Assembly: GCA_028716525.1 (NCBI GenBank)
Contig: JAQUPQ010000014.1
Location: 14,544 to 78,543, forward strand
Reading direction: 5' to 3'
DNA from: Terriglobia bacterium
Lineage (GTDB): Bacteria > Acidobacteriota > Terriglobia > JAIQFV01
Length of the DNA stretch: 64,000 nucleotides
Shown here: positions 1,562-46,687 of the stretch, piece by piece
How positions within the stretch are numbered: position 1 is the first letter of the stretch
How the letters are laid out: the number at the start of each line of letters is the position of its first letter
Notes under the pieces: generated by a model
Database searches by the model: none
Seen by the model: only the letters and a program-made list of their open reading frames with translations
What the model was told of the DNA's origin: nothing
Made by a program: the position numbers and the translations under genes

Positions 1562-2608
1562 TCAAAAGGTTATTTTCGAAACGGCTTTCATTTCCTTGGC
1601 GACCACCGGCTTGGGCAGCGGGGCGTAGGCGAGACTGGTGGTGTATTGCTGTCCCTCCACCATCATCCACTTGAGAAAGTCGACCACAATTCTTCCCTTT
1701 TGCGGGTTGTCGAAATGTTCCGGGATGAGCAGCCAAGTGAAACTGGAAATCGGGTATGCCCCTTTGCCGGGGGCGTTGGTGATAGAAACGCGAAAGTCGG
1801 CCGGCATGTTGGTGGCCGCGCCGGCGGCAGCTTCCGAAACCGATTTCAAATCCGCCTTCACGAAAATCCCCGTGGAGTTTTTGACTCGTCCATAGGGCAC
1901 GTGGTTTTGAATGGCGTAAATCAACTCCACATAACCCATGGCGCCGGGCGTTTGTTTAACCACGCCCATCACGCCCTCGTTGCCTTTGCCTCCGAGTCCC
2001 ACAGGCCAGTTCACGGAAGTCGAATGGCCGACGCGAGATTTCCACTCGGGGCTGACTTTGGAAAGAAAGTCGGTCCAGATGTATGTAGTGCCACTGCCGT
2101 CAGACCGATGGACCACGACAATGTCGGTCCCCGGCAATTTCACTCCGGGGTTGTCGCGAGTGATGGCCGCATCATTCCATTTCGTAATCTTCCCCAAGTA
2201 GATGTTGGCGAGCGTTTCCCCGCTGAAATTTAGCTCTGCGTTAACGCCCGGGATGTTGTAGCTGGGGACGGCGGCGCCGAGAACCGTCGGAAAATGAAGA
2301 ATCGGAATCTTGGATTTCTTTAATTGTTCGTCGGTCATCGGTCCATCACTGGCCCCAAAGTCCACCGTGCGCGAAAGCAGTTGCTGAATGCCGCCCCCGC
2401 TGCCGATAGATTGATAATTGATCTGAATATCGGGATGCTTCTTGTGATATTCGGAAAACCACTTGGAGTAAATCGGGTACGGAAACGTCGCGCCGGCAGC
2501 GTTCAATTGAGTTTGGCCAAATGCCGGAACTGACCCGACGATAAACCCAGCCAACCCCAAAAGAATTCCTGCGATTCTGAGTCTGCTCATTAAATCTCCT
2601 TTTCTCAA
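1562..2608 (-). CDS. pstS: Phosphate-binding periplasmic protein PstS.
   Basis: It has a signal peptide and the PstS-like core (ATFPYPIYSKWFSEY...SGTTYIWTDFLS). It heads the pstSCA operon. Confidence 0.9.
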   Translation of the reverse strand: MRKGDLMSRLRIAGILLGLAGFIVGSVPAFGQTQLNAAGATFPYPIYSKWFSEYHKKHPDIQINYQSIGSGGGIQQLLSRTVDFGASDGPMTDEQLKKSKIPILHFPTVLGAAVPSYNIPGVNAELNFSGETLANIYLGKITKWNDAAITRDNPGVKLPGTDIVVVHRSDGSGTTYIWTDFLSKVSPEWKSRVGHSTSVNWPVGLGGKGNEGVMGVVKQTPGAMGYVELIYAIQNHVPYGRVKNSTGIFVKADLKSVSEAAAGAATNMPADFRVSITNAPGKGAYPISSFTWLLIPEHFDNPQKGRIVVDFLKWMMVEGQQYTTSLAYAPLPKPVVAKEMKAVSKITF

Positions 2609-2631
2609 GGCAAACAGTGTAGCGTCTTCAT

Positions 2632-2670
2632 TGTTACAAGGAGGTTAAGACGCGGTTAAGGATTTGTTAA
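2632..2670 (-). promoter_or_regulatory. Putative Pho box: four hexamers (TGTTAC, GGTTAA, GGTTAA, TGTTAA on the plus strand; TTAACA, TTAACC, TTAACC, GTAACA on the gene strand) at exactly 11-bp spacing. It lies 24-62 bp upstream of the pstS ATG.
   Basis: The direct repeats at 2632, 2643, 2654 and 2665 are read directly from the sequence. The architecture resembles PhoB/PhoP binding arrays. Confidence 0.45.
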
Positions 2671-2699
2671 CTGCCCATTCTCTTTCTAAGACCCCGTGG

Positions 2700-4403
2700 C
2701 TAGTAGTTGAACTGTGTAACGATCATGATCGCGTTCGTGCCCTTCGGGACAACATTGACGATGCCCAGTGGATTTGCCGCCGCCAACGAGGAACTGAACG
2801 TCGCGATCTGACCGGGTGACATGGTGAATTGGTTGTGAACGTAATGCAGGTTCGAGTCGCCCACGGCAATGTCAAAGTGATTGTTGAAGTGATAGCTGAT
2901 GCCGGCAACGGTGCGCGTGAAATCCAGAGGGTTTGTGCCGCTGATATTCGTGTTTGGTTGGAAATAGTGGAACAAACCGAAAAGCCGGAAAGGCGAGCTT
3001 CCCAGCTTGACGTTCCCAAAGAAGGCGAACCCTTGCTGGCGAGTATGGTCTCCATTGAGGAGCCCCTTGGCGAGGGCATCAAAGGTGGCATTGGGGGTCG
3101 GACCAAGACCGAATTCATCCGCCGGCCCGGAACCCGAGAACAGGTTTCCGGTGCTGAAGGCATTCCGTCCTAAATCGTATTCTCCCACGATTTCGTAAGT
3201 CTTGGCGGGACTCTGGTAGTGCGCAAAAAGCGCCAGCCGGTTGAGCGCAATGCTTCTGGTATCGGGCGTCTGGGTGTTGTAGCCATAATCCTCGAACGCC
3301 GTCAGGCCAAAGCCGGTTCGGTCTATTTTTGTCCCAAACGGGTACCAGGTGACACGGGCCATGACTTGCTTCTTGTCGTTGGATTCGATGGCATGGAAGC
3401 TGGCTGTGTTGAAGACACCGATGTCGTAATCCAAGAACTCCTTGCCATTGATCATGACGGGGCCGTGCAGTTTGACGCCCGTGTAGGTGGAGCTGAGGCT
3501 CAGATAATTCCAAGGTACCAAATAGGCGAACCGGAAGCCGCTCAACGCTTCTTCCCAGTCCACCAGCGGGTTTTGTGTTTGCCCGGCCGTGAGTTTGTCT
3601 TTTCCAAACATGTCACTGCCGGAAAACAACGTGTTGAAGTCGACATACGCGTATTTAAGACGAAAACCAAGATTCCCGTTGGAACTGGTGTTGATGGCTG
3701 CACCATTCCCGAAAGCTTGGGCTTTGGATACGTCAACCTGGCGGTAGATGTTCGGGGTAAGGCGGAGTGTCACGGCCTCAGTCGGCGTGTACACGAAGTT
3801 AAGGTAGGTTCGAGTGACATCGAAGGAATTGAAGCCGTCGTTTCCGGGCCCCGGCTGATTGGCTTGGGTAATGAACTGGGGGCCGAATCCCGTCTGCGTG
3901 TAATACGACCAGTCTCCGAAGAAGGTGGCTCCGAGTTGAATTTTCCCATACGCCAGATCGGACAACTTGGGCTCTTTCTTTTGGGAGGGTGAATCTTGAG
4001 AAGCCTCCAAGGCGGATGCCGCCGACGTCCCGGCCAGGGGATTGGTCGCGCCGAAGGCCGGACTCAATGCCCCCGCGGGAGGAAGAACGGGCTTTAGGCT
4101 GGCGACTTGACCCGCGCTCTTCAATCGTAAGATCTCATCCTGCTGCAACTTCAGTTGGGCGCTCATCTGATCCATGGCGCGTTTCAGGTCCTCAATGGTC
4201 TGGGCTTGCTTTTGTAACGCTTCCTCCAGTTGCTGCGACTTTTCATCGGCGGCCGCGGGCGGAGCAGCATTTGACTTCGCCGATTTTCTTTTCATCGCTG
4301 TCTTCTGAGCAGGGGAGTTGTCCGCCGCGAAAGCAGGAAGACTAATCGCCAACACAGCCAGAATTACAATTGTTACTGCCGAGAGGGACAGAGTCTTTCT
4401 CAT
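2700..4403 (-). CDS. Putative phosphate-selective porin (Porin O/P-like outer-membrane beta-barrel) with an N-terminal coiled-coil extension.
   Basis: It has a signal peptide and a Q/E/K-rich coiled coil, followed by alternating beta-strand-like segments and a C-terminal aromatic end (TQFNY). It lies directly upstream of, and in the same orientation as, pstSCA. A Pho-box-like repeat array sits upstream. Confidence 0.5.
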   Translation of the reverse strand: MRKTLSLSAVTIVILAVLAISLPAFAADNSPAQKTAMKRKSAKSNAAPPAAADEKSQQLEEALQKQAQTIEDLKRAMDQMSAQLKLQQDEILRLKSAGQVASLKPVLPPAGALSPAFGATNPLAGTSAASALEASQDSPSQKKEPKLSDLAYGKIQLGATFFGDWSYYTQTGFGPQFITQANQPGPGNDGFNSFDVTRTYLNFVYTPTEAVTLRLTPNIYRQVDVSKAQAFGNGAAINTSSNGNLGFRLKYAYVDFNTLFSGSDMFGKDKLTAGQTQNPLVDWEEALSGFRFAYLVPWNYLSLSSTYTGVKLHGPVMINGKEFLDYDIGVFNTASFHAIESNDKKQVMARVTWYPFGTKIDRTGFGLTAFEDYGYNTQTPDTRSIALNRLALFAHYQSPAKTYEIVGEYDLGRNAFSTGNLFSGSGPADEFGLGPTPNATFDALAKGLLNGDHTRQQGFAFFGNVKLGSSPFRLFGLFHYFQPNTNISGTNPLDFTRTVAGISYHFNNHFDIAVGDSNLHYVHNQFTMSPGQIATFSSSLAAANPLGIVNVVPKGTNAIMIVTQFNY

Positions 4404-4493
4404 CGATTCTCCTTTTGGTCTTCATGAAATTTGTGGACCAGCGCCGTTGCCCGAGTATTTGAGGACGACCCTAATTCTGAAGGTCGGGGCGAT

Positions 4494-4534
4494 GTTAGAT
4501 CGTTCTGTGTTAAAAACGTGTGACAAACTGTTAA
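4494..4534 (-). promoter_or_regulatory. Second Pho-box-like array (TGTTAG, TGTTAA, TGTGAC, TGTTAA at 10-14 bp spacing) about 90-130 bp upstream of the porin gene.
   Basis: The motif family matches that of the pstS upstream array. The spacing is less regular. Confidence 0.3.
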
Positions 4535-4960
4535 AGATTCCATGAAACCCAGGACTGGGCTGAGGATTGTTCGGAGGGGGTCGGTACTGGGACTCGCCTT
4601 AGCAGCGTCAGTCCCGCGGCCTTTAGAGTGATCGGGGAATCGGTTGTGGGCCATCCACTGAAAGGGCAAGACACGCTGTCGTCAGGTGAGGGATGCTTTT
4701 TTCATCGAAGTACGATCCAGCATCGGTGATTCTGCCTTGCGTGGGCCTAGCGCTCGGCATCCCACCGAACCAAGAGGGGAGCAAGATGCTTCCTGCTGGC
4801 AGGAGCGCGATTCGAGTTGATTCCTAGCCAATTCATTCAAAAAAAGCGTGAGGTGAGGAATCCACATCTATCGTGAGAAGAAGCAGGGGCCATGAGGAAA
4901 GCGTCGCGAACTGAACGTGCGTACCCAACCCAACAAATGTCTTGACGAGGTAAATGAAAT

Positions 4961-4978
4961 CGGATATTCAGATATCCG
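4961..4978. promoter_or_regulatory. Putative ArsR operator: the inverted repeat CGGATAT-N4-ATATCCG, ending 2 nt before the arsR ATG. A TTGACG -35-like hexamer lies upstream.
   Basis: The palindrome is read directly. ArsR/SmtB repressors classically autoregulate through an imperfect 12-2-12 type palindrome that overlaps their own promoter. Confidence 0.45.
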
Positions 4979-4979
4979 G

Positions 4980-5384
4980 ATGCTTGAATTCTTTATGAAA
5001 GACATCGTCAAAGTTTTCAAGGCCCTCTCGGATACCACTCGTCTTCGCATTCTCCACCTGCTCGAGCAAACCGGGGAGCTGTGTGTGTGCGATCTCAAAA
5101 CCGTCCTCGAGTGTCCGCAGGCGCGCATCTCCAGGCACTTGGCGATTCTCAAGAATGCGGGCTTTATCGATGACCGGCGCGAGGGGACGTGGGTGCTTTA
5201 TTCCCTGACGAAAGCCAAGGGTCCCATTCAGCCCGTGGTTCGGAAAGCCTTCAAGCAGATCGTGGCTGTTTCTCCGGATTTTGGCGACGACAAGCAGCGC
5301 CTGCGACAGGCCCTGGCGCAAGGGCGATGCAAGACATTTCAAGTCGTCCATCCGCGTGGCCTGTCGAAACCAGCGCCACGATGA
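4980..5384 (+). CDS. arsR: ArsR/SmtB-family metalloregulatory repressor.
   Basis: It has a winged-HTH region and the ELCVCDL metal-binding motif (VFKALSDTTRLRILHLLEQTGELCVCDLKTVLECPQARISRHLAILKNAGFI). The start is taken at the internal ATG 4980 because the operator palindrome sits there. The track ORF begins at 4917. Confidence 0.85.
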   Translation: MLEFFMKDIVKVFKALSDTTRLRILHLLEQTGELCVCDLKTVLECPQARISRHLAILKNAGFIDDRREGTWVLYSLTKAKGPIQPVVRKAFKQIVAVSPDFGDDKQRLRQALAQGRCKTFQVVHPRGLSKPAPR

Positions 5385-5492
5385 CCGAGTGATCCGCAAA
5401 TCACCCGCGTGAATACTTTAAGAAGGGCGGATGGAAATCGCGGTTATGCACAGACAATGAAATCGGAATCAGACGATTTGTCGGAGGAATCC

Positions 5493-6128
5493 ATGCCTAA
5501 GCCCAGGTGGCGCTTGGTGATTGCCTTGGTAATACTGCTAGCGACTATATCCGCTAATTCTGCAGCTCCCGAACAAACGAAGGCTTTCAAAGGCTTCGAG
5601 GTGATTCCTCTGAGAAATGGCCCAAATGAAATTGATATCAATGGAGACGGCTTAAAAGATCTGATCTTTATCGCTTGGCGCGAGAACTACAATGCCCATG
5701 GATTTGACATTATTACTTTCTATCTTCAGGTTAAGAGTGATCATGATATCCAGCCGAAAGAAGAATGGTATCTTGTCCCGTTTTTTGATGAGGGAGGAGT
5801 TCCTGACAAAACCTCTCTCAAGACCGAGATGGGTGCTGATTGCATTCTCTCTGACATCCGCGTGATACGCCCAGTCTCACCCAAGAAGGGTCCTGTTACT
5901 ATTGTTGTTGGTATCCGTGATTTAGGAGAGTCGTATGCCGATGAAGCATCAATTAAATTTCTCGTTTATGAATTGAGGTACACCAAAGAGGGCATTCCAG
6001 GAAAACCGCCTTATTACTTTCAGCAGTCAAAGACCATACCTGGGCAAGAGAAGTACTGCGACATCAATAACGCATTTCAAAGAGAATTGGGACTCGGATG
6101 GTACCGCACCGACAGAAAAAAGGAATAG
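5493..6128 (+). CDS. Hypothetical secreted protein with a single D-x-N-G-D-G-x-x-D calcium-binding-like motif. The gene has a distinctly lower GC content than its neighbours.
   Basis: A GGAGGA ribosome-binding site precedes the ATG at 5493. The N-terminus (MPKPRWRLVIALVILLATISANSAAPEQ) is a signal peptide. Codon usage is AT-rich compared with the neighbours. The track ORF is 5409..6128. Confidence 0.5.
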   Translation: MPKPRWRLVIALVILLATISANSAAPEQTKAFKGFEVIPLRNGPNEIDINGDGLKDLIFIAWRENYNAHGFDIITFYLQVKSDHDIQPKEEWYLVPFFDEGGVPDKTSLKTEMGADCILSDIRVIRPVSPKKGPVTIVVGIRDLGESYADEASIKFLVYELRYTKEGIPGKPPYYFQQSKTIPGQEKYCDINNAFQRELGLGWYRTDRKKE

Positions 6129-6201
6129 GATGGTCTTACCAAACTCAGGGTGCCGCCCATAATCAGTGCTTGCAATCGATTGCAGATAATGTTGACTCCC
6201 G

Positions 6202-7314
6202 GTGACGCCTTCAAAAGATCGAACTCCAATGAATAAGAATTTCACAGGTCAACTGTCATTTCTCGACCGCTATTTGACCGTTTGGATTTTTGCGGCCATG
6301 GTGGCCGGCGTAGCTGGAGGATGGCTGGTTCCCGGGATTGTACCCCTCCTCAATCGATTCAACGTCGGCACCACCTCCATCCCCATCGCCGTGGGTTTGA
6401 TCCTGATGATGTATCCGCCTCTAGCCAAAGTGCGCTACGAAAAGCTGGGCCAAGTATTCCGCAACAAGAAAATTCTGTTGTTGTCGTTGATTCAAAATTG
6501 GATTGTTGGACCGGTGCTTATGTTCGCGCTCGCCATCCTTTTTCTTCACCATTATCCCGATTACATGGCGGGGCTCATCATGATGGGTTTGGCGCGTTGT
6601 ATCGCCATGGTGATTGTATGGAATGAGTTGGCCAAGGGAGATACCGAATACGCCGCCGGCCTGGTGGCCTTTAATTCGGTCTTCCAGGTACTGTTCTATT
6701 CCGTTTACGCGTGGATTTTTGTCACCAAGCTGCCGGAATGGTTCGGCATGCACGGGTCGGTGGTCAACGTCTCCATCCGTGACATTGCCCACAGCGTTTT
6801 TATCTACCTGGGCATACCTTTCGTGGCGGGCATGATCACACGGTTTGGTCTGCTGCGGGCGCGGGGCAAGGAGTGGTACGAGCGGAAATTCATTCCGCAC
6901 ATCAGCCCCGTCACGCTGATCGCGTTGTTGTTCACCATCGTGGTGATGTTTTCGCTGAAGGGCGAGTACATTGTTCGCCTGCCGCTCGACGTGGTGCGCA
7001 TCGCCATTCCGCTCCTCATCTACTTTGTGGTGATGTTTCTGGTCTCGTTTTACATGGGCCACAGGCTGGGCGCGGATTATTCCCAGACGGCCACGCTTTC
7101 GTTTACGGCTGCCAGCAATAACTTTGAGTTGGCAATTGCTGTCGCGGTTTCGGTCTTTGGCATCAATTCCGGCGCAGCTTTTGCAGCCGTCATCGGTCCG
7201 CTCGTCGAGGTGCCGGTTCTGATCAGCTTGGTCAATGTGTCTTTGTATTTTCAGCGGAGGTTCTATCCCGGCGTCGCAGTTCAGCCCGAAGCGGTTTTGG
7301 CAAGCCATACTTAA
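6202..7314 (+). CDS. acr3: Arsenite efflux permease of the ACR3 family.
   Basis: It is a ten-transmembrane-segment protein that begins ...[28 protein letters not shown], which is an ACR3 hallmark. An alternative start is at 6229. Confidence 0.9.
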
Positions 7315-7326
7315 GGAGTCCGATCC

Positions 7327-7737
7327 TTGAAGCAGCGGGTTTTATTTTTATGCACCGGCAACTCGGCGCGGAGCCAGTTGGCTGAAGGGCTGCTCAGACA
7401 CTTGGCGGGCGACCGCTTCGAAGTCTTCAGTGCGGGGACAGTTCCCGTGGGTGTGAATCCCGCTGCCGTTGAAGTCATGAATGAGATCGGGATCGACATC
7501 TCCTCTCAGTGGTCCAAATCGGTGGAGGAATACGCCGGGCAGGACTTTGATGTGGTTTTTACTTTGTGCGACTACGCTCGGGAGACCTGTCCGATTTATT
7601 CCGGTGGAACCAAACAGCTGCATCAGAACTTCGAGGATCCTACCTGGGCGTCTTCTGACGGTCGCCTGGAAGCTTTTCGCCGTGTGCGCGATAAAATTGC
7701 CGAGCGGTTGAAGCAGTTCATTGCTTCCGGACAGTGA
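7327..7737 (+). CDS. arsC: Arsenate reductase ArsC of the LMW-PTP, thioredoxin-coupled type.
   Basis: It carries the CTGNSARSQ P-loop motif (MKQRVLFLCTGNSARSQLAEG...) and is 136 aa long. Confidence 0.9.
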   Translation: MKQRVLFLCTGNSARSQLAEGLLRHLAGDRFEVFSAGTVPVGVNPAAVEVMNEIGIDISSQWSKSVEEYAGQDFDVVFTLCDYARETCPIYSGGTKQLHQNFEDPTWASSDGRLEAFRRVRDKIAERLKQFIASGQ

Positions 7738-7765
7738 GTTCCCGCTGCTCCGAAAATATTATTCT

Positions 7766-8046
7766 GTCGTCCCGCGAAGCGGGACTAGAATCCAATCTCA
7801 ATCTTTTCCCCAGGCTTACGCCTGGGGCTAAAGATCTGGCGTCCTCCTGGCGGAGGACTTGTTGAATGTGGTCCAGCAAAGTTCCTCGAAGACAGTCGAA
7901 AGTCCTTTATTCGAGACGTAAGTCCAGCGTCGGTGGGGTTAGAAATAGATTAGTCCCGCCTTCCGGGACGGTAGACCTTTAGCCCAGCACGTCAGTGCTG
8001 GAGACGGTACGAGGGGAGGGCACCGAGTCCCGCTCCGCGGGACGAC
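7766..8046. repeat. Cluster of GC-rich hairpin modules. These include GTCCCGC-N3-GCGGGAC at both ends, CCCCAGGCTTACGCCTGGGG, GTCCTCCTGGCGGAGGAC and CCAGCACGTCAGTGCTGG.
   Basis: The palindromes are read directly. The same modules recur at 12.6, 22.0, 46.2-46.5 and 49.2-49.4 kb. Confidence 0.6.
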
Positions 8047-8245
8047 AGATACCTTTCGGGAGCAGGTAAGATAATCGTGCGAACAGAAGATGCTTGGATT
8101 TCTTTCGCCACGTCCGGCATGATCCAAAATGAAAACTGCTTGAGGTGAAATCTCCGCAGGGCATAGAATTCACCTGTCGCCAGTCGCGCCTGTGTTGGCC
8201 CCTGATGTTTTATCGACCGGGTGGCACGTGAGGCTTTCAAGTAAA

Positions 8246-8483
8246 CGATCCCATTCCATGAACTGACCAGCGCTGAAAAGGAGCAGAAGGCAGAGATCAT
8301 TACGCGCGTGAGCGCTTGCGCATTGCATCATCGTCTCGCCACGCGCCTGCTCGAGGATGGCTCCGAGACTTGTGCGGTGCAAGAGCTTCTGGGTCACAGG
8401 GATGTGAAGACCACGATCCGGCGCGGCCCAACTCATGCTTTGGATCGGGGAGGCAAGGGCGTGAAGAGTCTCGTGGACACGCT
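8246..8483 (+). pseudogene. C-terminal remnant of a tyrosine recombinase (integrase-like, IntI/Xer type). It is about 78 codons long and has no N-terminal part.
   Basis: The translation ...RVSACALHHRLATRLLEDGSETCAVQELLGHRDVKTTIRRGPTHALDRGGKGVKSLVDTL* matches the conserved HxLRHxFAT...LLGH.DV.TT..YTHV...GG.GV.SPLD box II region. The catalytic Tyr region is degenerate. An in-frame stop sits just upstream at about 8243. Confidence 0.5.
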
Positions 8484-8736
8484 GTGAAGGAAAAGGCGGA
8501 GGGTGTTATGCGGAAACCAAATAAGATGCAGGATCGAAACAGAATTGCCCCTAATCCGTTGACGAAAAAGGGATGCGTCACGTTTTCGATGAGGGTATTA
8601 TCAGGACGGAAAACCGGATAATGGTTTTATCTGGAAACCATATATTTAGAAGTTAGGCCATTGGCGACTTTTCATGAGCGACCAAATCCACAATGCAAAG
8701 AAGTGACGGAATCAACAGTCACGAAAGGAATCCTCT

Positions 8737-9204
8737 ATGAGACTGCTCGTAGTCATCCTAAGTGGCTTGGTGTTGGCAGCTGCTCTTTGTACAGGCGAGG
8801 CTTCCAGCGCATCGAGCGCGGTAGTCAACCCTGTCGAAGAAACCCTTATCCAGATCGAGCACGACTGGGGAAACGCGCTGCTTAAGGCTGATGTAGCTGC
8901 GTGGAGCCGTTATCTGGGCGATGACTGGGTCCTTACGTATTCCGACGGCACGCTCGTAACTAAGCCAATGGCTCTGGCTGATCTTAAGAAGGGAGCGCTC
9001 AAGATCGAGTCTTTCCAGCTCGATGACGTGAAGGTGCGCGTGTACGGCGACGCCGCAGTCGTGACGGGTCAGATTACGGAGAAGAGCAAATTCCAGGACA
9101 AGGACACGAGCGGTGTGCGCCGCTTTACCGACGTGTTCGTGAAGCGCGCCGGCCGCTGGCAGGCTGTCGCCTCGCACGAGAGCGACGTTTCAGCAGCGAA
9201 GTAG
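8737..9204 (+). CDS. Secreted NTF2-like protein (DUF4440/SnoaL-like fold).
   Basis: It has a signal peptide and an NTF2-like pattern (IQIEHDWGNALLKADVAAWSRYLGDDWVLTYSDGTL...VYGDAAVVTGQ...RRFTDVFVKRAGRWQAVASHES). Confidence 0.6.
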   Translation: MRLLVVILSGLVLAAALCTGEASSASSAVVNPVEETLIQIEHDWGNALLKADVAAWSRYLGDDWVLTYSDGTLVTKPMALADLKKGALKIESFQLDDVKVRVYGDAAVVTGQITEKSKFQDKDTSGVRRFTDVFVKRAGRWQAVASHESDVSAAK

Positions 9205-9368
9205 TTGATTTATGTTCCTTGGAGCATGGCCCAACCATCCGGTGGAGCCAACCGTCGCCCCGCATGCACAGGTGACCGAGTCAGTGACCGGTTTGGGGAC
9301 GTCGGTGGCTCACCGGTTTCGTTAGCCCGCCAATAGAACTCGAGAAATCCCGATCAGGGGAAGCCCAT

Positions 9369-9868
9369 ATGAACACCGAACTGAAGAAGCGCGATCTCGT
9401 CGTTACCCGGGTCTTCAACGCTCCGGTCAAGCAGCTATGGAAGGCCTGGAGCGATCCCGAGCTCGTGAGGCGCTGGTGTATATGAATCGCTTCATCGGCA
9501 CGATCTTCTCGTAGGTCCAGGTGTTAAACATGTCTTGACCACCCAAGAATTCCTTTGGCGCGCGCATACAAACAAGAGATGTCCCGCCCTCGCGGAAATC
9601 CATCATGGCAATAGGGCAAGCAAAGCCCACTGGCTACATCCTTCGGTTCGCCGACAAGGACGGCAATCCAATGGACCCCGTCAAGCAGGGATTATCGGCG
9701 GATATCCCAAAGGAAATGCGTCATGAAGTCACTTTCAGGGAACTCGGCAACGATAAGTCGGAAGTTACAGTGACCAAATATGGCTGGACGGTTGGTCCAA
9801 TGATGGAGATGTCCAAAATGGGCTTGGAGCAGTGCCTGGATAAGATGGCTGCGCTCTTTGCCAAATAA
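9369..9868 (+). pseudogene. SRPBCC/AHSA1-family gene disrupted by an internal inversion. The N- and C-terminal thirds are on the plus strand and the middle third is encoded on the minus strand.
   Basis: The plus strand from 9369 reads MNTELKKRDLVVTRVFNAPVKQLWKAWSDPELVRRWC and then stops. The minus strand across about 9487-9630 encodes GFACPIAMMDFREGGTSLVCMRAPKEFLGGQDMFNTWTYEKIVPMKRFIY. The plus strand across 9605-9868 encodes ...YILRFADKDGNPMDPV...VTFRELGNDKSEVTVTKYGWTV...QCLDKMAALFAK. Together these read as one collinear SRPBCC protein if the middle segment is flipped. Confidence 0.65.
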
Positions 9869-10289
9869 TGAACGGTCGGGGACATAGGCAACAAAAGAGT
9901 CTTGGGAGATGGGTTACACTTGATTCTTTTTCTTATGACGCCAGAGGCTGCTGTAAGCATCCTCGCCGACGCCCTGCGCGATGGAGACTTTATCCGCTCC
10001 CACCTTTGAAGGGTGGCTGAAGAACAATCTTGTGGAGTGCGGTCCGCCGCGGCGGAACGCCGCTTTGGATTCTCGCATCGAAAGAGAGCATGGGAAGATG
10101 AGATGACCGAGGCATAGGGGGTGCAATCCTCTTCCAAAGCCCCGACAGGTCGGGGCACTCCAAATTTAAACATCGTTTTCCTAATCTCACCGGGAACGCG
10201 CAAGAGTTGATATATTTCAAGATCGAACTCCGATGAAATCGGAGCGGAGGAGTCAAGCCGCGTCCGATCTTGACGAGTCGGGGGAAGAG

Positions 10290-10570
10290 CAAGGTACGCA
10301 GCGGCGAAAGCACCCGTGCCCGCTCAAGCCCGGCGAATCACCATCAAAGTCATGTCGTCGGCGTCGAAATCCGCGCTGCGGAATTTTGTCCAATCGTCGA
10401 GAATCGTCCGAATCATCAGTGACGGCGCGGCGCTTGAATTCCGTCCAACCAGATCGATCTGCCGTTCCGTTCCGTAAGGACGGCCCGCATCATCTTCCAT
10501 CTCCGTCAGTAAAGAGAATCAGGCCGTCGCCGGGTTGCAGCCTGCCAGGACTTGGTGATGGTCCGAAGAG
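10290..10570 (-). pseudogene. Frameshifted 3' fragment of a PP2C/SpoIIE-type phosphatase gene. It is a paralog of the gene at 11429..12424.
   Basis: The DNA is clearly similar to 11440-11660. The minus-strand frames give ...RLQPGDGLILFTDG, then a frameshift, then LTEMEDDAGRPYGTERQIDLVGRNSSAAP...DDMTLMVIRRA. The N-terminal two-thirds are absent. Confidence 0.6.
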
Positions 10571-10625
10571 CTAAGTTGAGCATTGATGATTTGACGCCTG
10601 GTATGAAAAGTGTTATACTAAAAGT

Positions 10626-10862
10626 ATGAAAACAGCTATCTCCATACCGGACAAAGTTTTTCGTTCTGCGGATTCCCTGGCCAAGCGTCTCGGCGTATCC
10701 CGGAGTAAGTTGTACGCAACCGCCGTAGCCGATTTCTTGTCCAGGTACCAAGGTCGACAAGTAAAGGAACGCCTTGACGCAATATATGGCAAGGAGGAAT
10801 CCACACTCGATTCGGGGCTAGTCAAACTTCAGGTGAAATCTTTTCCGCATGAGGAGTGGTGA
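10626..10862 (+). CDS. Type II antitoxin, partner of the MazF/PemK toxin. It is a small DNA-binding protein.
   Basis: It is 78 aa long (MKTAISIPDKVFRSADSLAKRLGVSRSKLYATAVADFLS...). Its stop overlaps the toxin ATG, as in TGATGG. Confidence 0.6.
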   Translation: MKTAISIPDKVFRSADSLAKRLGVSRSKLYATAVADFLSRYQGRQVKERLDAIYGKEESTLDSGLVKLQVKSFPHEEW

Positions 10863-11200
10863 TGGAAAGAGGCACGGTGTGGTGGGCGGAGCTCCCCGAT
10901 CCCGTTGCATCGGAACCTGGTTTTCGACGTCCCGTTGTGATTGTTTCTTCCGATGTGTTCAATCGGAGTCGCATACGAACTATAGTCGCCGTTGTGATCA
11001 CTTCGAATCTCCGGCTCGCTGAAGCTCCTGGTAACGTGCAGATTGCCGCAGCCGACTCGGGTCTTCCCAAGGATTCTGTGGCAAACATATCGCAGGTTAT
11101 CACCATAGATAAGAGCTTCCTCACCAAACGTTGCGGTCGATTGCCGCCATCGCTTTTGAAGACGCTTGATCAGGGATTGCGGCTGGTTCTGTCTTTGTAA
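10862..11200 (+). CDS. MazF/PemK-family endoribonuclease toxin.
   Basis: The sequence reads MERGTVWWAELPDPVASEPGFRRPVVIVSSDVFNRSRIRTIVAVVITSNLRLAEAPGNVQI...GLPKDSVANISQVITIDKSFL, which is the canonical PemK/MazF pattern. Confidence 0.85.
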   Translation: MERGTVWWAELPDPVASEPGFRRPVVIVSSDVFNRSRIRTIVAVVITSNLRLAEAPGNVQIAAADSGLPKDSVANISQVITIDKSFLTKRCGRLPPSLLKTLDQGLRLVLSL

Positions 11201-11428
11201 AGTCCCAGCAGCCCAGCAACTGTTTGCAGCCGATCCGCCTCGGGGATCCCCCGCAGGGGACGCAAGCGCGCAAGCGCCCGCGCTTCAGCGGGCTGCCGGG
11301 TGGTGCGCCGCGGCTGGAGCGCAACCGATGGGTTTGTTAGTTCCACCACACGTGGCTGGTTCGTTCTTTTTGCCGCCTTCCTGGACTGACACCAAGACTA
11401 TTCCGACGAAGGACCGCCCGTGGGGCTT

Positions 11429-12424
11429 TTACTGGCGACTAGAGGAATCCCCTTTTCTCCGTATTGCCATGAGCGTCATGTCATCGACCTTGAAACCGGG
11501 GCCACGGAATTTTGTCCAATCGTCGAGAATCGTCCTGACCATCACTTGCGGAGCAGCACTGGAATTATTCCGAACCAATTCGATCAACCGTTCAGTTCCG
11601 TAAGGACGGCCCGATTCATCTTCCATTTCCGTAAGGCCGTCGGTGAAAAGGACCAGGCTGTTGCCGGGTTGTAAACGAACGGATTTCTCGAGAAATTTTT
11701 CATTGCAAAAAAGCCCGATCGGCAGACCGGTGGCTTCCAGGGGGATAATGGAATCCCCTTGCACGAGCAGCGCCGGGTGATGGCCGGCGTTACAAAGCTC
11801 AACGGTTCCGGAGCGATGCGCCCGGCCACACACCAGGGTGGCGAAGTGAGTGGGCAGCGTGCTTTCGCAAAAGCCGCGGCTGGCGCGTTCCACTGCCTGA
11901 GTCAGAGGCAAACCCAGCGCGGTGAGTGTGCGCAACATGGCATGAAGTTGGCCCATCAACATGGAAGCAGCCAAGCCCTTGCCTGAAACGTCGCCCAACA
12001 TGAAACTGACGGTATCTTCCGATGAAGTTAGGACGTCGCAATAGTCTCCGCTCACCAAACCGGCCGGGGCATAATGGTGGGCGATTACCCAACCGGCGTG
12101 CTCCACCAAAGGTTTCGGAAGCATTTCCTTTTGAATCTGGGCGGCTAACTGCAAATCTTCTTCCAGATCGTGTTGTTGACCGGGCGTCAAGTGTGCAAGA
12201 CATAACCGCGCCAAAGGATCGGCTAACAAGCGGTCTTTCTCGATGGGTTCGTGACATACATCGCACAGTCCATAATCGCCCTTGTCCATGTGTCCCAAGG
12301 CGTGATCGACGCTCGCCAATAGATCTTGAATTTGCGACATATCCATGGAATTTTTCTGAACGATCTCAAGGCGGCTGCGGCGATCCAGAAGTTCGTTTCG
12401 GAGCATGTCGTTGGGGGTGCTCAT
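11429..12424 (-). CDS. PP2C-type (SpoIIE/RsbU-like) serine phosphatase with an N-terminal Cys-rich zinc-ribbon-like segment.
   Basis: It carries the PP2C motifs (GDYCDVL, GDVSGKGLAASMLMGQL, ELCNAGHHPALL, LVLFTDGLTE). The N-terminus contains CDVCHEP...RLCLAH. Confidence 0.8.
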   Translation of the reverse strand: MSTPNDMLRNELLDRRSRLEIVQKNSMDMSQIQDLLASVDHALGHMDKGDYGLCDVCHEPIEKDRLLADPLARLCLAHLTPGQQHDLEEDLQLAAQIQKEMLPKPLVEHAGWVIAHHYAPAGLVSGDYCDVLTSSEDTVSFMLGDVSGKGLAASMLMGQLHAMLRTLTALGLPLTQAVERASRGFCESTLPTHFATLVCGRAHRSGTVELCNAGHHPALLVQGDSIIPLEATGLPIGLFCNEKFLEKSVRLQPGNSLVLFTDGLTEMEDESGRPYGTERLIELVRNNSSAAPQVMVRTILDDWTKFRGPGFKVDDMTLMAIRRKGDSSSRQ

Positions 12425-12594
12425 GTTTGGTAACTCCTGTCGAAAGCCTGTTTTATTCCTCGGCTGAGTAAAAGTAGAATGTTAAAGGCAATAGTAAAAC
12501 ACTCTCGTTATGCACAAGCTATCATATTGTCCCGGCGTTGTGTCTATCCGACTATTTTACTGAATTTTTTCAGATAAGGGTTCAAGTCTATGTC

Positions 12595-12906
12595 GCTCCC
12601 TGCGGGAGCTCGTTGTTGTAGGGTCGTCAGGGTCCTGAGGCTTACGCCTCAGGCTACGACTATTTCATCCCCCAATGGGGGATTTCATTTTCGTGAAAAT
12701 TTCTAATTGTGCTGAGAAAGAACGCACAGGGATATAAGAATGTTTTATCTTCCGGGGAGGAGATTCAACACAGAGGACATCGAAGTTACACAGTGAATTC
12801 CCCGGTTTTTTCCGAGGCAGTTGCTCATGCCCCGATGGATCGGGGCACCCAGGAGAATGAAAATCGTTCTGGAAGCCGGGATGCTCCGCTTTTTGGAGCA
12901 TCCCGG
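12595..12906. repeat. Cluster of GC-rich hairpin modules: GCTCCCTGCGGGAGC, CCTGAGGCTTACGCCTCAGG, CATCCCCCAATGGGGGAT(TTCAT), CCCCGATGGATCGGGG and CCGGGATGCTCCGCTTTTTGGAGCATCCCGG.
   Basis: The modules are shared nearly verbatim with 46.4-46.55 kb and 49.2-49.3 kb. Confidence 0.6.
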
Positions 12907-13114
12907 ATGTGCCATCGAATGCACGGTTGTAATCTTACAGCCCGCCTTGGCGGACGAAAGAAAACGATCGATGGGGTCATGGTTGTTTTTGGTCCAGCCC
13001 ACCCGGGCTTGAAGAAGGATCACACGCTCTGGCCTTCGTTGTCCGCTTCGTGGGATACTTCTAAAATATCTTGGCGGTCAAGGGCGCGCTCCTGCAATTG
13101 GAACGCGTGAATCC

Positions 13115-13693
13115 TTGTGTAGTGTGGTCTTCTCTGATGGAGACAGTTGGACCGTGCGGAAGGAGGGGACGTCTGTGGAACTCGTTTTGGATCGGTGCAT
13201 TATCCGCAGCTGGCAGTTGACGGATGCGGGATCGGTGGCCAAACAAGCCAATAGTCGCAAGATCTGGCGGAATGTCCGGGATGCGTTTCCATTTCCTTAC
13301 ACCATCGGCAATGCCAAGGAATGGATACGAATAGCACGGGCGGATGTGCCGGAGACCCACTTTGCCATTGAAGTGCATCGCGAAGCGGTGGGCGGTATCG
13401 GCGTCCGATTGAAGGAAGACGTGTATCGCTGCACCGCCGAGATCGGCTATTGGTTGGGAGAATCCTACTGGGGTCAGGGTATCGTCACAGAGGCAGTGCG
13501 CGCCCTCACCGATTTCGCGTTTGCCAACCTTGGCGTATGGCGGGTGTATGCCGACGTGTTTGAATGGAACCCGGCTTCCATGCGGGTGCTCGAAAAAGCC
13601 GGCTACATTTGTGAAGGCCGCCTGCGCAAAAATGTCATCAAAGATGGGCAGGTGATCGACGCCCTTTTGTACGCCAAGGTTCGGGAAAGCTAG
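13115..13693 (+). CDS. GNAT-family N-acetyltransferase (RimJ/RimL-like).
   Basis: It has the acetyl-CoA binding motif region (IGYWLGESYWGQGIVTEAVRALTDFAFANLGVWRVYADVFEWNPASMRVLEKAGYICEGRLR). Confidence 0.75.
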   Translation: MCSVVFSDGDSWTVRKEGTSVELVLDRCIIRSWQLTDAGSVAKQANSRKIWRNVRDAFPFPYTIGNAKEWIRIARADVPETHFAIEVHREAVGGIGVRLKEDVYRCTAEIGYWLGESYWGQGIVTEAVRALTDFAFANLGVWRVYADVFEWNPASMRVLEKAGYICEGRLRKNVIKDGQVIDALLYAKVRES

Positions 13694-14035
13694 GTGAAGA
13701 CCATGTCATTTGAAAAAATCGCAGAGCAGAAGATCCGCGAAGCCATGGAGAACGGGGAATTTGATAATCTTCCGGGGCGGGGCCAACCGTTGGATTTGGA
13801 ATCCTATTTCGCCCTGCCCGAAGATTTGAGGATGGCCTACTCCATTCTCAAGAACGCCAACGTGCTGCCGCCCGAGGTGGAATTGTTGAAGGAAATTAAT
13901 TCCCTGAGAGAAAAATCGGCGAAGTGCCCGGACAAAACCAAGCGTCATGACCTGGAGAAACAGCTGGCGGACCGTCAGTTGAAATTGGATTTGCTGGTCG
14001 AACATTATCGGCGCAAGCAGAGACCTGCCGGCTGA
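13694..14035 (+). CDS. DUF1992 (DnaJ-associated, DNAJC28-like) domain protein.
   Basis: It carries the DUF1992 signature (IAEQKIREAMENGEFDNLPGRGQPLDLESY...EDLRMAYSILKNANVLPPEVELLKEI). The GTG at 13694 abuts the GNAT stop, and an alternative ATG is at 13703. Confidence 0.65.
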   Translation: MKTMSFEKIAEQKIREAMENGEFDNLPGRGQPLDLESYFALPEDLRMAYSILKNANVLPPEVELLKEINSLREKSAKCPDKTKRHDLEKQLADRQLKLDLLVEHYRRKQRPAG

Positions 14036-14100
14036 CGGCGGTCGCGATCTTAAACATCGATACCTGTTTCAAGAAATCACTAAATCGGAGAATTGCATTT

Positions 14101-15069
14101 ATGAAGGCGATTCAAATTAAGAAAACCGGCGGTTCTGAGGTTCTGGAATATGGCGAAGTCAGCAATCCCTTGCCGGGGGCAGGCGAAGCCCTGGTGAAGA
14201 TTGAAGCCATTGGAGTGAATTTTATCGATGTGTACCACCGCACGGGGCTTTATCCGCTGCCCCTGCCTTTTACGCCCGGCTCGGAAGCGGCCGGTCGCGT
14301 GGCCGCCGTCGGACCGGGTGTGACCGAAGTAAAAGAAGGCGACCGCGTGGCTTACGCCATGGCCCGCGGCGCCTATGCGGAATATGCCTGTGTGCCGGTA
14401 AGGCAGCTGGTAACGGTTCCCAATGAAATTGATTCGCGGACCGCCGCGGCCACCATGCTTCAGGGCATGACGGCACATTACCTGTTGAAGTCGACGTATC
14501 CCGTGAAATCAGGCGAGACACTTTTGATTCATGCCGCAGCCGGAGGGGTGGGCTTGCTGGTGTGCCAAATAGGAAAAAAGTTGGGGGCGCGTGTTATTGG
14601 AACCACATCCACGGCGGAGAAAGCCGCCTTGGCGCGTCAAGCCGGCGCCGATGAGGTGATTCTTTACTCCACACAGGATTTTGAATCGGAAGTGAAGCGT
14701 CTTACCGATGGCAAAGGAGTTCAGGTGGTTTATGACTCCGTGGGTCGCGATACCTATCTCAAAAGTCTAAACTGTCTGGCGCCCCGGGGAATGCTGGTGA
14801 TGTTCGGTCAGTCCAGCGGCGCCGTGGGATCGTTCGATCCGCTGCTTCTCTCGCAACATGGTTCCCTGTTTCTGACACGGCCTTCGCTGGCTCATTACAC
14901 CGCCAATGCGGAAGAGTTGCGCTGGCGCGCCGGCGAGCTTTTTGAATGGATCAAATCAGGGGCTCTAAAAATCAGGATCGATCGCACTTATCCGCTGCGC
15001 GATGCCGCTCAGGCCCATCGCGATTTGGAGGCGCGAAAAACTGCGGGGAAGGTGTTGTTGATTCCGTAA
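14101..15069 (+). CDS. qor: NADPH:quinone oxidoreductase (zeta-crystallin/MDR family).
   Basis: The sequence reads MKAIQIKKTGGSEVLEYGEVSNPLPGAGEALVKIEAIGVNFIDVYHRTGLYPLP and includes the Rossmann motif AAAGGVGLLVCQIGK. Confidence 0.8.
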   Translation: MKAIQIKKTGGSEVLEYGEVSNPLPGAGEALVKIEAIGVNFIDVYHRTGLYPLPLPFTPGSEAAGRVAAVGPGVTEVKEGDRVAYAMARGAYAEYACVPVRQLVTVPNEIDSRTAAATMLQGMTAHYLLKSTYPVKSGETLLIHAAAGGVGLLVCQIGKKLGARVIGTTSTAEKAALARQAGADEVILYSTQDFESEVKRLTDGKGVQVVYDSVGRDTYLKSLNCLAPRGMLVMFGQSSGAVGSFDPLLLSQHGSLFLTRPSLAHYTANAEELRWRAGELFEWIKSGALKIRIDRTYPLRDAAQAHRDLEARKTAGKVLLIP

Positions 15070-15201
15070 GGAGTCACCCTCTCTCCATCGGAAGCAAGTG
15101 CCAACGCGAGTAATTCAGGACGATTTTTGATTTGCATTAAGGACGACATGTGAAGGAGCTCTGGTAGCCCCGGCCGTTCTCTAGTGCGGGAATCATAAAA
15201 A

Positions 15202-15261
15202 GGGGACAGACACCTCAAATTCTTCGACGCGCACTGTCGACAGCGGTTGGTGTCTGTCCCC
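15202..15261 (-). terminator. Hairpin with a 13-bp stem (GGGGACAGACACC ... GGTGTCTGTCCCC), immediately downstream of the outer-membrane gene stop and followed by a T-run on the minus strand.
   Basis: The inverted repeat is read directly. It lies between convergent genes (the qor end at 15069 and the outer-membrane gene stop at 15265). The stem sequence is shared with the repeat at 50601-50699. Confidence 0.5.
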
Positions 15262-15264
15262 TTC

Positions 15265-16116
15265 TTAAAAATCAAATCGGCGCCCCACGATCCATTTGAC
15301 CACCCAATGTTCGCTGCTGCCGGTCAGGCCGCGGCCCACTCCAAAATTCAATTCCCAGTCGGGCGAGACGTTGAGGTCCAAGGTCGGAAAAATCAGGTGA
15401 TGCTGATCGTGCAGCGTGTCGAAATGCGCGATGGGACCGGTTTCAGCATAGTATTCAAATCCGGGCGCAATTTTCTTGGTCAGGTTGTAGGAAAGTTTGA
15501 CGCCGGGTTCCATACCGAAGCCGTGATGCGCATCCACTCCGCGAAATGACTTCGTCAGATCGGGGTTCATGGAGAAATACCAGTTGCCGATTCCCTTTTC
15601 GATGATGGGGCGGATTTCCAAAGTAATGGTGTTGGGGTCGAATTGATGCTTATTGAATCCCACCTCCGTGCTGACGCTGAAACGAAAGGGAAGATGCCAT
15701 TCCTCGGGCGCTTTCCAGCGCGGACGCACGCGAGCCCCGGCAAACTTCGGCCCCACGTTCGGCACATAAGGCGCCGTCACCAGATACCCCGCCAGTTCCC
15801 AGTCTTTCGTCAACCCGTGCGTGACTTCCATGGTCGTGTGGAACTGATGGTTGTTGGGAAACAAACCACTCTCAGTGTTTTTTGTTCCCACGGGATAAAA
15901 ATTCATGTGAAGCTCGATCATGGTGTGATGCGGCTCCACGGTGTCGTAGGGATACACTTGAATTTCAAAAAGATCTTGAGCGCAAAGCCGGGAGGTGAAG
16001 GGCAAAAGCAGGAAGATCAATAGGCCTGCAAGGAAACCAAATCGCCTGCGAAATGCAGCAGGCCCCTGAGGGGAGTGAGCTGCGCGACCGGGGAAACCCG
16101 CGACAGTAGGCGCCAA
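15265..16116 (-). CDS. Putative outer-membrane beta-barrel protein (transporter/MetA-pathway-like family).
   Basis: It has a signal peptide and a periodic amphipathic strand pattern, and ends in ...VGRRFDF with an aromatic C-terminus. I recognise no catalytic motif. Confidence 0.45.
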   Translation of the reverse strand: MAPTVAGFPGRAAHSPQGPAAFRRRFGFLAGLLIFLLLPFTSRLCAQDLFEIQVYPYDTVEPHHTMIELHMNFYPVGTKNTESGLFPNNHQFHTTMEVTHGLTKDWELAGYLVTAPYVPNVGPKFAGARVRPRWKAPEEWHLPFRFSVSTEVGFNKHQFDPNTITLEIRPIIEKGIGNWYFSMNPDLTKSFRGVDAHHGFGMEPGVKLSYNLTKKIAPGFEYYAETGPIAHFDTLHDQHHLIFPTLDLNVSPDWELNFGVGRGLTGSSEHWVVKWIVGRRFDF

Positions 16117-16437
16117 AAGTTCCCCTCGATTTATCGTGTTCCGATACTTCAGCAGGAAATCCTCAGATGTGCAAGTGGCCGGGGACAGAAATTACAAGAT
16201 TTTGAAAAAGCGGGTCTGCCTTCTGCCTCGAAAAGAGCAGAGGTTTCTGTCGCCCCTGACGGGGCTGGGCGACAAAATCCTCCACCCACCCCACCCTTGC
16301 TCCACGAAAAGCGTGGAGCTTCGGGCGGGGCTAGATTCTGGTTGGCCCTCCGGGCCTCGAATGGAGCGACCCGGTGATTTTCATGTTCTTGGATGCGACA
16401 GTGGCATATGAGGAACTGCTCCGATAATAGGCGGTGC

Positions 16438-16475
16438 TTTGGTAGCCACCCCGATATATCGGGGTGGCTACCAAA
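16438..16475. repeat. Perfect 38-bp palindrome TTTGGTAGCCACCCCGATATATCGGGGTGGCTACCAAA in the divergent intergenic region between the outer-membrane gene and the first MacB-like gene.
   Basis: It is read directly; the two half-sites are exact reverse complements. It also explains the mirror-image peptide GSHPDISGWLP seen in both-strand ORFs of the track. Confidence 0.55.
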
Positions 16476-46054: not shown

Positions 46055-46172
46055 TCTTGCCGTTGGGAGTGCGCTGAGGAAAAAATCAAATCAGCCCTGA
46101 TTCATGGGGCGACAAAAACCTCACAATCTCTGATTCGGCTGATCATCCTGTGTTTTTGGAAGTGCATCTGCC

Positions 46173-46548: not shown

Positions 46549-46687
46549 ATGTGCGATCGACTCGGATTACCGCGAGGTCCGGCCCCGATGAATCGGGCGA
46601 TGCAAAAGTGAGGAAGTCATTTGCCGTTGAGCAGGGACGGCGAGGGGAGATCCAGACTAGCGATATGATAATGGACGGCCGGTAAAA

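Follow-up and report, generated by a model that had tools for sequence, protein, structure and literature searches.

A probable decayed integron of the inverted-integrase type beside a toxin-antitoxin module in an Acidobacteriia genome

In a 64-kb stretch of DNA from a Terriglobia bacterium (assembly GCA_028716525.1, contig JAQUPQ010000014.1), the region between an arsC gene (7327-7737) and a GNAT gene (13115-13693) raises the question of what kind of element has decayed there. A first-pass annotation, made from the letters alone, had described a recombinase remnant, an NTF2-like gene, an inverted SRPBCC pseudogene, a broken PP2C phosphatase gene and a mazEF/pemIK-type toxin-antitoxin (TA) pair between two clusters of hairpin repeats, and had proposed a decaying integrated element. 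The whole stretch is called the window here, and its coordinates are used throughout. All these components were recovered in their places from the list of open reading frames (ORFs), the sequence and family scans. Integrons are bacterial gene-capture platforms that are themselves stationary. We consider it probable that a chromosomal integron of the "inverted integrase" type once occupied the left half of the region (about 8245-9868) and has decayed there, that the TA pair and the PP2C genes of the right half have a separate history, and that the repeat clusters are dispersed repeats. Of the original proposal, the decay and the accessory character stand for the left half, with its dead integrase stub, broken gene and mobile cassettes; the integrated element gives way to a stationary platform. 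The features are collected in Table 1.

Table 1. Features of the region, in window coordinates; matches of cassette 2 to metagenome contig L098 are given as nucleotide identity
Feature	Position	Strand	Description
Left hairpin cluster	7763-8049		two inverted three-hairpin modules; arms 7763-7786 / 8026-8049 96% complementary
Non-coding stretch upstream of stub	8113-8244	+	conserved together with the stub in metagenome contig L101
intI pseudogene remnant	8245-8487	+	last ~76 of ~320 codons; TIGR02249, PDB 2a3v, alignment to P0255
attI-like site	8488-8658	+	three GRAAACCNNATAA repeats (8512-8524, 8609-8621, 8633-8645) and core GTTAGGC (8652-8658)
Gene cassette 1	8653-9321	+	intact DUF4440/NTF2-like gene 8737-9204 and attC
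attC of cassette 1	9229-9327	+	99 nt; R'' GCCCAAC, 5-nt spacer, extrahelical bases at 16 and 23, R' GTTAGCC
Gene cassette 2	9322-9868	+	SRPBCC/AHSA1 pseudogene (gene 9369-9868, split between strands); own attC missing
Cassette 2, first match	9320-9478		L098 7952-8110, 93.7%, forward
Cassette 2, second match	9477-9634		L098 8271-8114, 94.3%, inverted
Cassette 2, third match	9635-9868		L098 8268-8501, 84.2%, forward
Inverted segment, 158 bp	9477-9634	-	inside SRPBCC gene; reverse match to L098, forward matches on both sides
Non-coding stretch	9869-10323		origin not assigned; one family-type hairpin at 10139-10156
PP2C/SpoIIE paralog, 3' fragment	10324-10543	-	residues 250-323 of intact PP2C; frameshift by 8-nt deletion
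TA promoter-like site	10591-10619	+	TTGACG, 17 nt, TATACT; 10/12 positions, TG extension
Predicted antitoxin, MazE6-like, ribbon-helix-helix	10626-10862	+	PDB MazE6 7wj0 E 3.5e-4; weak RHH_1 E 0.019
Predicted MazF/PemK-family toxin	10862-11200	+	PF02452 E 3.1e-25; PDB MazF6 5hk0 E 1.5e-30
Intact PP2C/SpoIIE phosphatase	11429-12424	-	331 aa; PF07228 E 7.9e-47; N-terminal DksA/TraR zinc finger PF01258 E 1.3e-8
Right hairpin cluster	12588-12918		dispersed families; matches at 46487-46560, 49219-49286

The integrase stub, the attI-like site and the cassettes

The recombinase fragment, which had been recognised as the degenerate C-terminal part of a tyrosine recombinase, matches PF00589 with an E-value of 5.7e-6. 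Its top NCBIfam family is the integron integrase TIGR02249 (E 2.9e-13, profile positions 250-315 of 315), whereas XerC and XerD score 4e-9 or weaker, and the closest solved structure is VchIntIA, the IntI of Vibrio (2a3v). A word-based homologue search with the 80-aa stub returned fragments only, and an exhaustive HMMER search was then used. The relatives found in this way are mostly fragments, and all ten of the longest close ones have TIGR02249 as their best family; P0255, P0344 and P0376 (324.8, 300.4 and 299.6 bits) lie above the family cutoff of 265 bits. We assign the stub on this basis to the integron integrases (IntI clade) and not to the Xer recombinases or the integrases of phages and integrative and conjugative elements (ICEs). 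It aligns to residues 248-323 of P0255, a full-length IntI of 323 aa, which means that about 24% of intI has been kept. In this alignment the catalytic arginine is changed to histidine (LRH to LHH, i.e. HTLRHSFATHLL to CALHHRLATRLL) and the catalytic tyrosine is gone (IYTH to IRRGPTH, i.e. TTMVYTHVLNRGGKGVRSPLD to TTIRRGPTHALDRGGKGVKSLVD). The stub is dead, and the functional intI that belongs to a complete integron is missing. No other pieces of intI were found elsewhere in the window, and tblastn gave no match upstream of 8245.

The stub appears to have been in this state for a long time. Positions 8113-8418 match positions 351-656 of contig L101 in blastn at 78% nucleotide identity without gaps, and both flanks are unrelated. 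L101 encodes P0252, a homologous stub that is truncated in the same way and likewise lacks the catalytic residues. Between the two stubs, the ratio of nonsynonymous to synonymous substitution rates (dN/dS) is about 0.57 over 57 codons, which indicates relaxed constraint. Taken together, the identity to the L101 stub, the unrelated flanks and the dN/dS value point to an old relic whose surroundings turn over. The non-coding stretch that is conserved upstream of the stub may be further decayed intI. We dropped the idea that the cassettes are younger than the decay of intI, as their non-coding parts are about 15-20% diverged (counted by eye), similar to the 22% of the relic.

Directly downstream of the stub, 8488-8658 is colinear with the spacer between intI and the first cassette in L102, the locus that encodes P0255, the closest full-length IntI. 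The L102 spacer likewise contains three GRAAACCNNATAA repeats; those in the window are putative binding sites of the integrase and the only matches to this motif in the 64 kb. The core is GTTAGGC in the window and GTTCGGC in L102, and the distance from the last repeat (GGAAACC) to the GTT is 19 nt in both. From this colinearity we infer that 8488-8658 is attI, with the crossover G|TT at 8652/8653. In L102, intI is followed by an ORF and an attC-like hairpin with the canonical C at top-strand position 16, all on one strand. A scan with the promoter consensus for a cassette promoter (Pc) gave a weak site at 8140-8169 (9/12 positions), upstream of the stub, and there are just as many such sites as chance alone would give. 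The SBF-family gene that adjoins intI in L102 was compared with the ACR3 gene of the window and is not homologous to it.

Cassette 1 is bounded by GTTAGGC at 8652 and GTTAGCC at 9321. Its gene was correctly called NTF2-like, with a DUF4440 match of E 5.9e-21 over 8737-9204, and soil metagenomes contain many protein relatives at 78-88% aa identity. Window positions 8808-9252 are 91-94% identical at the nucleotide level to DUF4440 copies in six metagenome contigs (L092-L097), which represent at least four different contexts. In L092, L093, L095 and L097, the gene is followed by an attC of the same family of about 96 nt, which starts with xCCTAAC and ends with GTTAGRY; the contig L094 ends inside its attC. 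L092 and L093 diverge directly past GTTAGATGCT.

To describe the attC of cassette 1, a covariance model (R1) was built from an alignment (A1) of ten attC sites from L097, L092 and L095, with the window excluded. RNAalifold on this alignment yields the R-box, the spacer and the L-box hairpin and leaves positions 16 and 23 unpaired. When R1 was run over the whole window with filters off, it gave a single match, 9229-9327 on the plus strand (33.1 bits, E 4.9e-6), the next best score being 11.7 bits. In 1.33 Mb of other loci there were no false positives and nothing beyond true arrays at E ≤ 0.1. The site reads GCCCAAC-CATCC-GGT-G-GAGCCA-A-CCG ... CGG-TGGCTC-ACC-GGTTTC-GTTAGCC. In an alignment of 13 sites, 92% of cells are paired, compared with at most 46% in slid controls, and seven pairs show compensatory double changes. 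Published rules for attC sites ask for RYYYAAC and GTTRRRY boxes, a spacer of 5-6 nt, extrahelical bases at 16 and 23 that enclose a 6-bp stem, and a length of 57-141 nt (PMC5027507); apart from the base at position 16, the geometry of 9229-9327 fits them. With an ORF and its attC, G|TTRRRY cores at its boundaries and the same unit in different arrays, 8653-9321 has the characteristics by which a gene cassette is recognised from sequence.

Two simpler scans were less useful. A home-made attC scan that required 6/7 complementarity of the R-box failed to pick up the true site, as its R' half is contributed by the adjoining cassette. A scan with a pairing score at fixed geometry did not discriminate and was replaced by the covariance model. 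Folding of 9860-10000 and 11195-11340 gave no attC-like fold.

Cassette 2 has its 5' boundary at the GTTAGCC core and lacks an attC of its own. Its gene is the SRPBCC pseudogene that had been described as inverted, and when the N-part, the reverse-complemented middle and the C-part are joined, the reconstructed protein is colinear with solved SRPBCC proteins and 84% identical, over 100% of its length, to intact proteins of 165-166 aa. In L098, L099 and L100 the intact gene lies among small same-strand genes with attC matches on both sides. The homology of cassette 2 to these three contigs starts at 9320, at the core, and stops at the stop codon at 9868. L098 runs on into an attC at 8508-8582, whereas the window has none past 9868; the array has thus been cut off at this point.

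The comparison with L098 also defines the 158-bp inversion within the gene. At its junctions 3 nt were lost and 2-4 nt duplicated, and the only microhomology is 4 nt (TGTA/TACA). No orientation restored the reading frame when the segment was re-inverted in silico. A programmed intragenic inverton was considered and is ruled out by the short microhomology, the junction indels and the frame; we interpret the inversion as an illegitimate rearrangement and not as a switch. The C-terminal third of the gene (9635-9868) is 84% identical to L098 and the first two pieces (9320-9634) are 94% identical, a hint that cassette 2 may be mosaic or recombinant.

Both small cassette genes are demonstrably mobile, to judge by their 91-94% nucleotide identity to copies in unrelated metagenome contexts. 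The assembly of the left half is supported independently: Logan contig L082 (SRR22315506), which may come from the window's own sample, matches 6794-10408 at 100% identity, inversion included. Codon usage was compared by the codon adaptation index (CAI), for which 23 long reference genes give a host range of 0.702-0.812. The cassette sequences lie at 0.67-0.68 and the TA genes at 0.62-0.63, and PP2C (0.722), arsC (0.74) and GNAT (0.78) fall within the range. The cassettes and the TA module look like foreign DNA, the intact PP2C like a native gene. The GC content is flat across the region. A check of GC and codon usage had been proposed, and only the second of these two signals appeared, for the cassettes and the TA pair.

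The platform would once have been a unit of intI, attI and cassettes, with intI transcribed toward the cassettes. Deletions would have taken most of intI and the distal array. Cassette 2, which begins exactly at the G|TTAGCC crossover, has been inverted internally and has lost its attC and everything beyond it, and these events may have come in any order. The remnant is unable to recombine by itself now, and the attI and the single attC would be substrates only for an integrase supplied from elsewhere in the genome. One could go further and suppose that the orphan attI beside the long-dead intI still works as a docking site for such an integrase, acting in trans. The age of the stub, as seen from L101, together with the close identity of the cassettes to ones that still circulate in other soil genomes, suggests this, and the quite different large genes that replace cassettes downstream of the L101 relic were raised in the same sense. 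If this were so, the relic and its attI would form a persistent hot spot of cargo turnover that outlives its own integrase. We consider it unlikely, and prefer the reading of a decayed integron.

Several of the comparison contigs have features of their own. The DUF4440 copy in L096 (1237-1734), 93.7% identical in nucleotides to the coding region in the window, has no attC, and its homology ends at the stop codon; it is the gene of cassette 1 fixed outside an array. L097 contains a cassette array (1574-10130) with at least eight homogeneous attC sites between small same-strand genes and no IntI. At the upstream end of this array there are a 407-aa integrase and a REP_ORF2-G2P gene; the former was considered as a possible IntI and rejected, as it is of a generic phage type. 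Short sites consisting of a hairpin and TCTCGTTAG, at 4933-4964 and 8200-8231 of L097, resemble cut-down or minimal attC sites. Downstream of the relic in L101 (880-10683), the genes are very large and lie on one strand (1378, 828, 359 and more than 774 aa, the second with a weak AAA_16 match), and they look different from ordinary cassettes; a 60-nt attC-like hairpin is located at 7614-7673 (19.9 bits).

Weighing the integron reading against known systems

A number of points weigh against a decayed integron. Only one attC is detectable with R1, even with filters off, although the model is narrow and a divergent second site is possible. R1 also includes attC sites of homologous DUF4440 cassettes, and its score therefore reflects descent in part and not independent structure alone. 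The position-16 base is C on the bottom strand where G is usual, which holds for the whole attC family. The attI assignment draws on one comparator, L102; over the stub, the identity to its IntI is only about 50%, and its own attC scores only 10.6 bits. Neither an N-terminal intI remnant nor the additional domain that is specific to IntI (about 16 residues near patch III) is recognisable by tblastn, that part of the gene being deleted or beyond recognition. IntegronFinder, by its conventions, would reject an attC that stands alone and lacks a functional intI (Cury 2016, PMC4889954). CAI values are noisy for genes as short as those of the cassettes and the TA module. The stretch 10408-12889 has no independent assembly support. 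Finally, no close relative that might date the platform or show whether arsC and GNAT are adjacent elsewhere was found (QOR at most 71% and PP2C at most 53% aa identity). A scan of genome contigs with the QOR protein gave best matches of 61-71% aa identity in many phyla without common neighbours, and the PP2C matches in metagenome contigs likewise have no neighbours in common.

The remnant falls outside the definition of a complete integron, its intI being dead, and also outside that of a cluster of attC sites lacking an integron integrase (CALIN), which comprises at least two attC sites within 4 kb, as R1 with filters off found a single site in the window. It is a relic of the kind and not a working member. 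Such relics have been described. The chromosomal integrons of Xanthomonas with inactivated intI, located downstream of ilvD, share the decayed integrase and the frozen cassettes mostly of unassigned function (bioRxiv 10.1101/2025.06.18.660453), and 15 of 279 CALIN elements adjoin intI pseudogenes (Cury et al. 2016, PMC4889954), which the stub resembles in being recognisable only by its C-terminal IntI signature. In comparison with both, the remnant in the window is far more eroded (one attC, two cassettes and about 24% of intI), and its host is known from an Acidobacteriia metagenome-assembled genome (MAG) and is not a proteobacterium. As decayed integrons and intI pseudogenes are already well known, the relic is of an ordinary kind and will not surprise integron specialists.

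The same direction of intI and cassettes has been documented in Treponema (PMC3607928) and by Cury 2016 (PMC4889954). In the "inverted integron-integrase" integrons of Treponema denticola and its relatives, as in L102 with its full-length IntI, intI is transcribed toward the cassettes; the window differs in that its integrase is non-functional. Integrons are also known in Acidobacteria, and the taxon has its own attC model (Ghaly et al. 2021, PMC8352920). The attC sites common to the soil metagenome arrays (L097, L092-L095) form a homogeneous family, about 96 nt long, and are in line with the attC families of soil bacteria and Acidobacteria described there.

With the reading of a decayed integron, a patch of pseudogenes becomes a readable history, in which an integron of an uncultured member of the Acidobacteriia lost its integrase and most of its array and kept one working captured gene. 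What is left now lies in a rearrangement-prone stretch beside a TA module. The locus would provide a documented example of the inverted-integrase type outside the spirochaetes. It also suggests a candidate architecture of attI, with three GRAAACCNNATAA repeats and a GTTAGGC/GTTCGGC core common to the window and to a locus with a full-length IntI, and indicates that a solitary attC, normally dismissed as noise, can be a true relic.

The toxin-antitoxin module and the PP2C genes

The right half contains two PP2C copies with a TA pair between them. The 3' fragment, whose frameshift had been noted before, is 75-79% identical in amino acids (tblastn) and 76-82% in nucleotides (blastn) to the intact copy; the similarity ends at 10543 and reaches past neither stop codon. 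We take the fragment for the tail of a diverged paralog and not for a fresh duplication. The intact PP2C is probably a host gene outside any islet, because its CAI falls within the host range. Its architecture, a DksA/TraR C4 zinc finger joined to a SpoIIE/PP2C domain, also occurs in the metagenome contigs L083-L088 at 45-53% identity and with neighbours that are not conserved.

The TA block begins at 10544, in place of the 5' three-quarters of the paralog. The start codon of the toxin overlaps the stop codon of the antitoxin as TGATG (10860-10864). With a toxin of the expected fold, a small overlapping antitoxin gene upstream and a promoter-like site, the pair has the marks of a type II TA system of the MazEF/PemIK type, as had been predicted. 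Compared with MazEF6 of Mycobacterium tuberculosis (5hk0, 7wj0), the toxin aligns over its full length, the N-terminus of the antitoxin matches, and the order of antitoxin then toxin and the stop/start overlap are the same. The relation is distant, however, the window module replaces part of a PP2C paralog, and its activity is a prediction. An insertion of the TA pair into or alongside a duplicated PP2C gene had been suggested; the pair does abut a truncated, diverged paralog, and most of that paralog was replaced, which is more than a simple insertion. A MazEF6-like operon with its own promoter would have taken the place of the 5' three-quarters of the diverged gene, next to the host-like intact one. 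It probably arrived independently of the integron, and any link to it is unproven.

Such a link would exist if 8245-11428 had been one cassette array, with the MazEF6-like operon as a stabilising cassette and the PP2C fragment and the 455-nt spacer as rearrangement debris. Chromosomal integrons are well known to carry TA cassettes (PMC13108822), and the TA genes here share the strand of the cassettes, have atypical codon usage and carry their own promoter-like site, as TA cassettes do. However, R1 finds no attC past mazF or anywhere in 9869-11428 (no match of at least 9.5 bits; the crude geometric scans are uninformative on this point), the PP2C fragment on the opposite strand stands between the TA module and cassette 2, and no homologous TA cassette occurs in the fetched arrays. 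We regard a former array of this extent as quite unlikely, and keep the TA module apart from the decayed integron.

For the non-coding stretch that separates the two halves (9869-10323), there was no Pfam match for any ORF, no attC and no similarity to any fetched locus. A Pfam scan of the leftover ORFs across 7992-13110 gave no credible match, and exact-protein look-ups with PP2C, with MazF read from a GTG start and with P0001 gave none.

Hairpin repeats and the outer limits of the region

Both hairpin clusters that had been taken as the bounds of the segment are present, at about 7763-8049 and 12588-12918. Their family is dispersed, however, and they have no meaning as boundaries. The window contains 41 perfect hairpins, against about 17 expected in shuffles; those of the window concentrate at 7769-8043, 12634-12906, 22051-22161, 46173-46443 and 49219-49268. 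Modules of the family are found at 7763-8049, 12588-12700, 22051-22161, 46167-46455 (more widely, 46167-46560) and 49180-49290. In blastn, 12634-12701 is 88% identical to 49219-49286, and 7808-7837 matches 46404-46375. An alignment of six modules, taken from four sites, shows a single three-hairpin family; compensatory changes preserve its stems, a sign that the hairpin structure may be under selection. As the family occurs at three other places in the window, its position on both sides of the region is not special. The clusters are a dispersed intergenic repeat family outside the integron, and neither att sites nor ends of an element.

This bears on the proposal that 8246-12906 is one integrated mobile element (the remnant of a prophage, an ICE or an islet) with the clusters as its ends and the recombinase as its integrase. 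A recombinase remnant at one end, pseudogenes and a TA module inside and repeats on both sides do give this impression. Apart from the wider occurrence of the repeats, the search for att-like direct repeats at the two boundaries found only D7, the middle hairpin of the family, which is also present at 46385 and 49219. The window has no tRNA or tmRNA, the recombinase belongs with those of integrons, GTTRRRY cores mark cassette boundaries within the region, the codon usage of PP2C is host-like, and there is no shift in GC. We therefore consider a single integrated element very improbable. That the juxtaposition is an assembly chimera joined at repeats is hardly credible: the source looks like a MAG and Logan contigs from the same sample end within repeats (the PP2C repeat at 10408 and a dispersed one at 12889), but L082 runs from arsC through the stub and the two cassettes with the inversion into the beginning of the PP2C fragment without a mismatch, the PP2C copies at 76-82% identity are too dissimilar for a mis-join, and the attI, the attC and the common GTTAGCC core are internally consistent. 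On the far side, Logan contig L001 matches 12889-16373 at 99.9% identity.

The three-hairpin modules resemble REP/BIME-like repeats (repetitive extragenic palindromes and bacterial interspersed mosaic elements) in being short, GC-rich hairpins, clustered in often inverted intergenic modules with compensatory stem changes; they differ in that the module was matched to no described family, and Rfam gave no match in the window. Hairpin A has the form GTCCCGC-NNN-GCGGGAC or GCTCCC-NNN-GGGAGC, hairpin B is CCYNRGSC-TYRC-GSCYNRGG, and hairpin C is variable. The modules often stand head to head, like a miniature inverted-repeat transposable element with the terminal inverted repeats TCTGYCGTCCCGC. 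A 74-nt repeat (12845-12918 and 46487-46560, 93% identity), with a hairpin whose 12-bp stem is CCGGGATGCTCC...GGAGCATCCCGG, follows directly after a three-hairpin cluster in both places, and it is in this repeat that the Logan contig breaks at 12889. The longest hairpin of the window is a perfect palindromic one with a 17-bp stem, TTTGGTAGCCACCCCGATATATCGGGGTGGCTACCAAA, at 16438-16475. Short, tandem-like direct repeats, GGTCACTAACCACTGGTCACTAATCACTG, are located at 22285-22337, directly upstream of the gene that ends at 22330.

Upstream of the region, a 239-aa ORF without a family match (5409-6128) precedes the ACR3-arsC pair. Both its GC content (0.449) and its CAI (0.651) are markedly low for this window. 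The ORF may be a further foreign gene, in which case the region of the ars cluster may itself be accessory.

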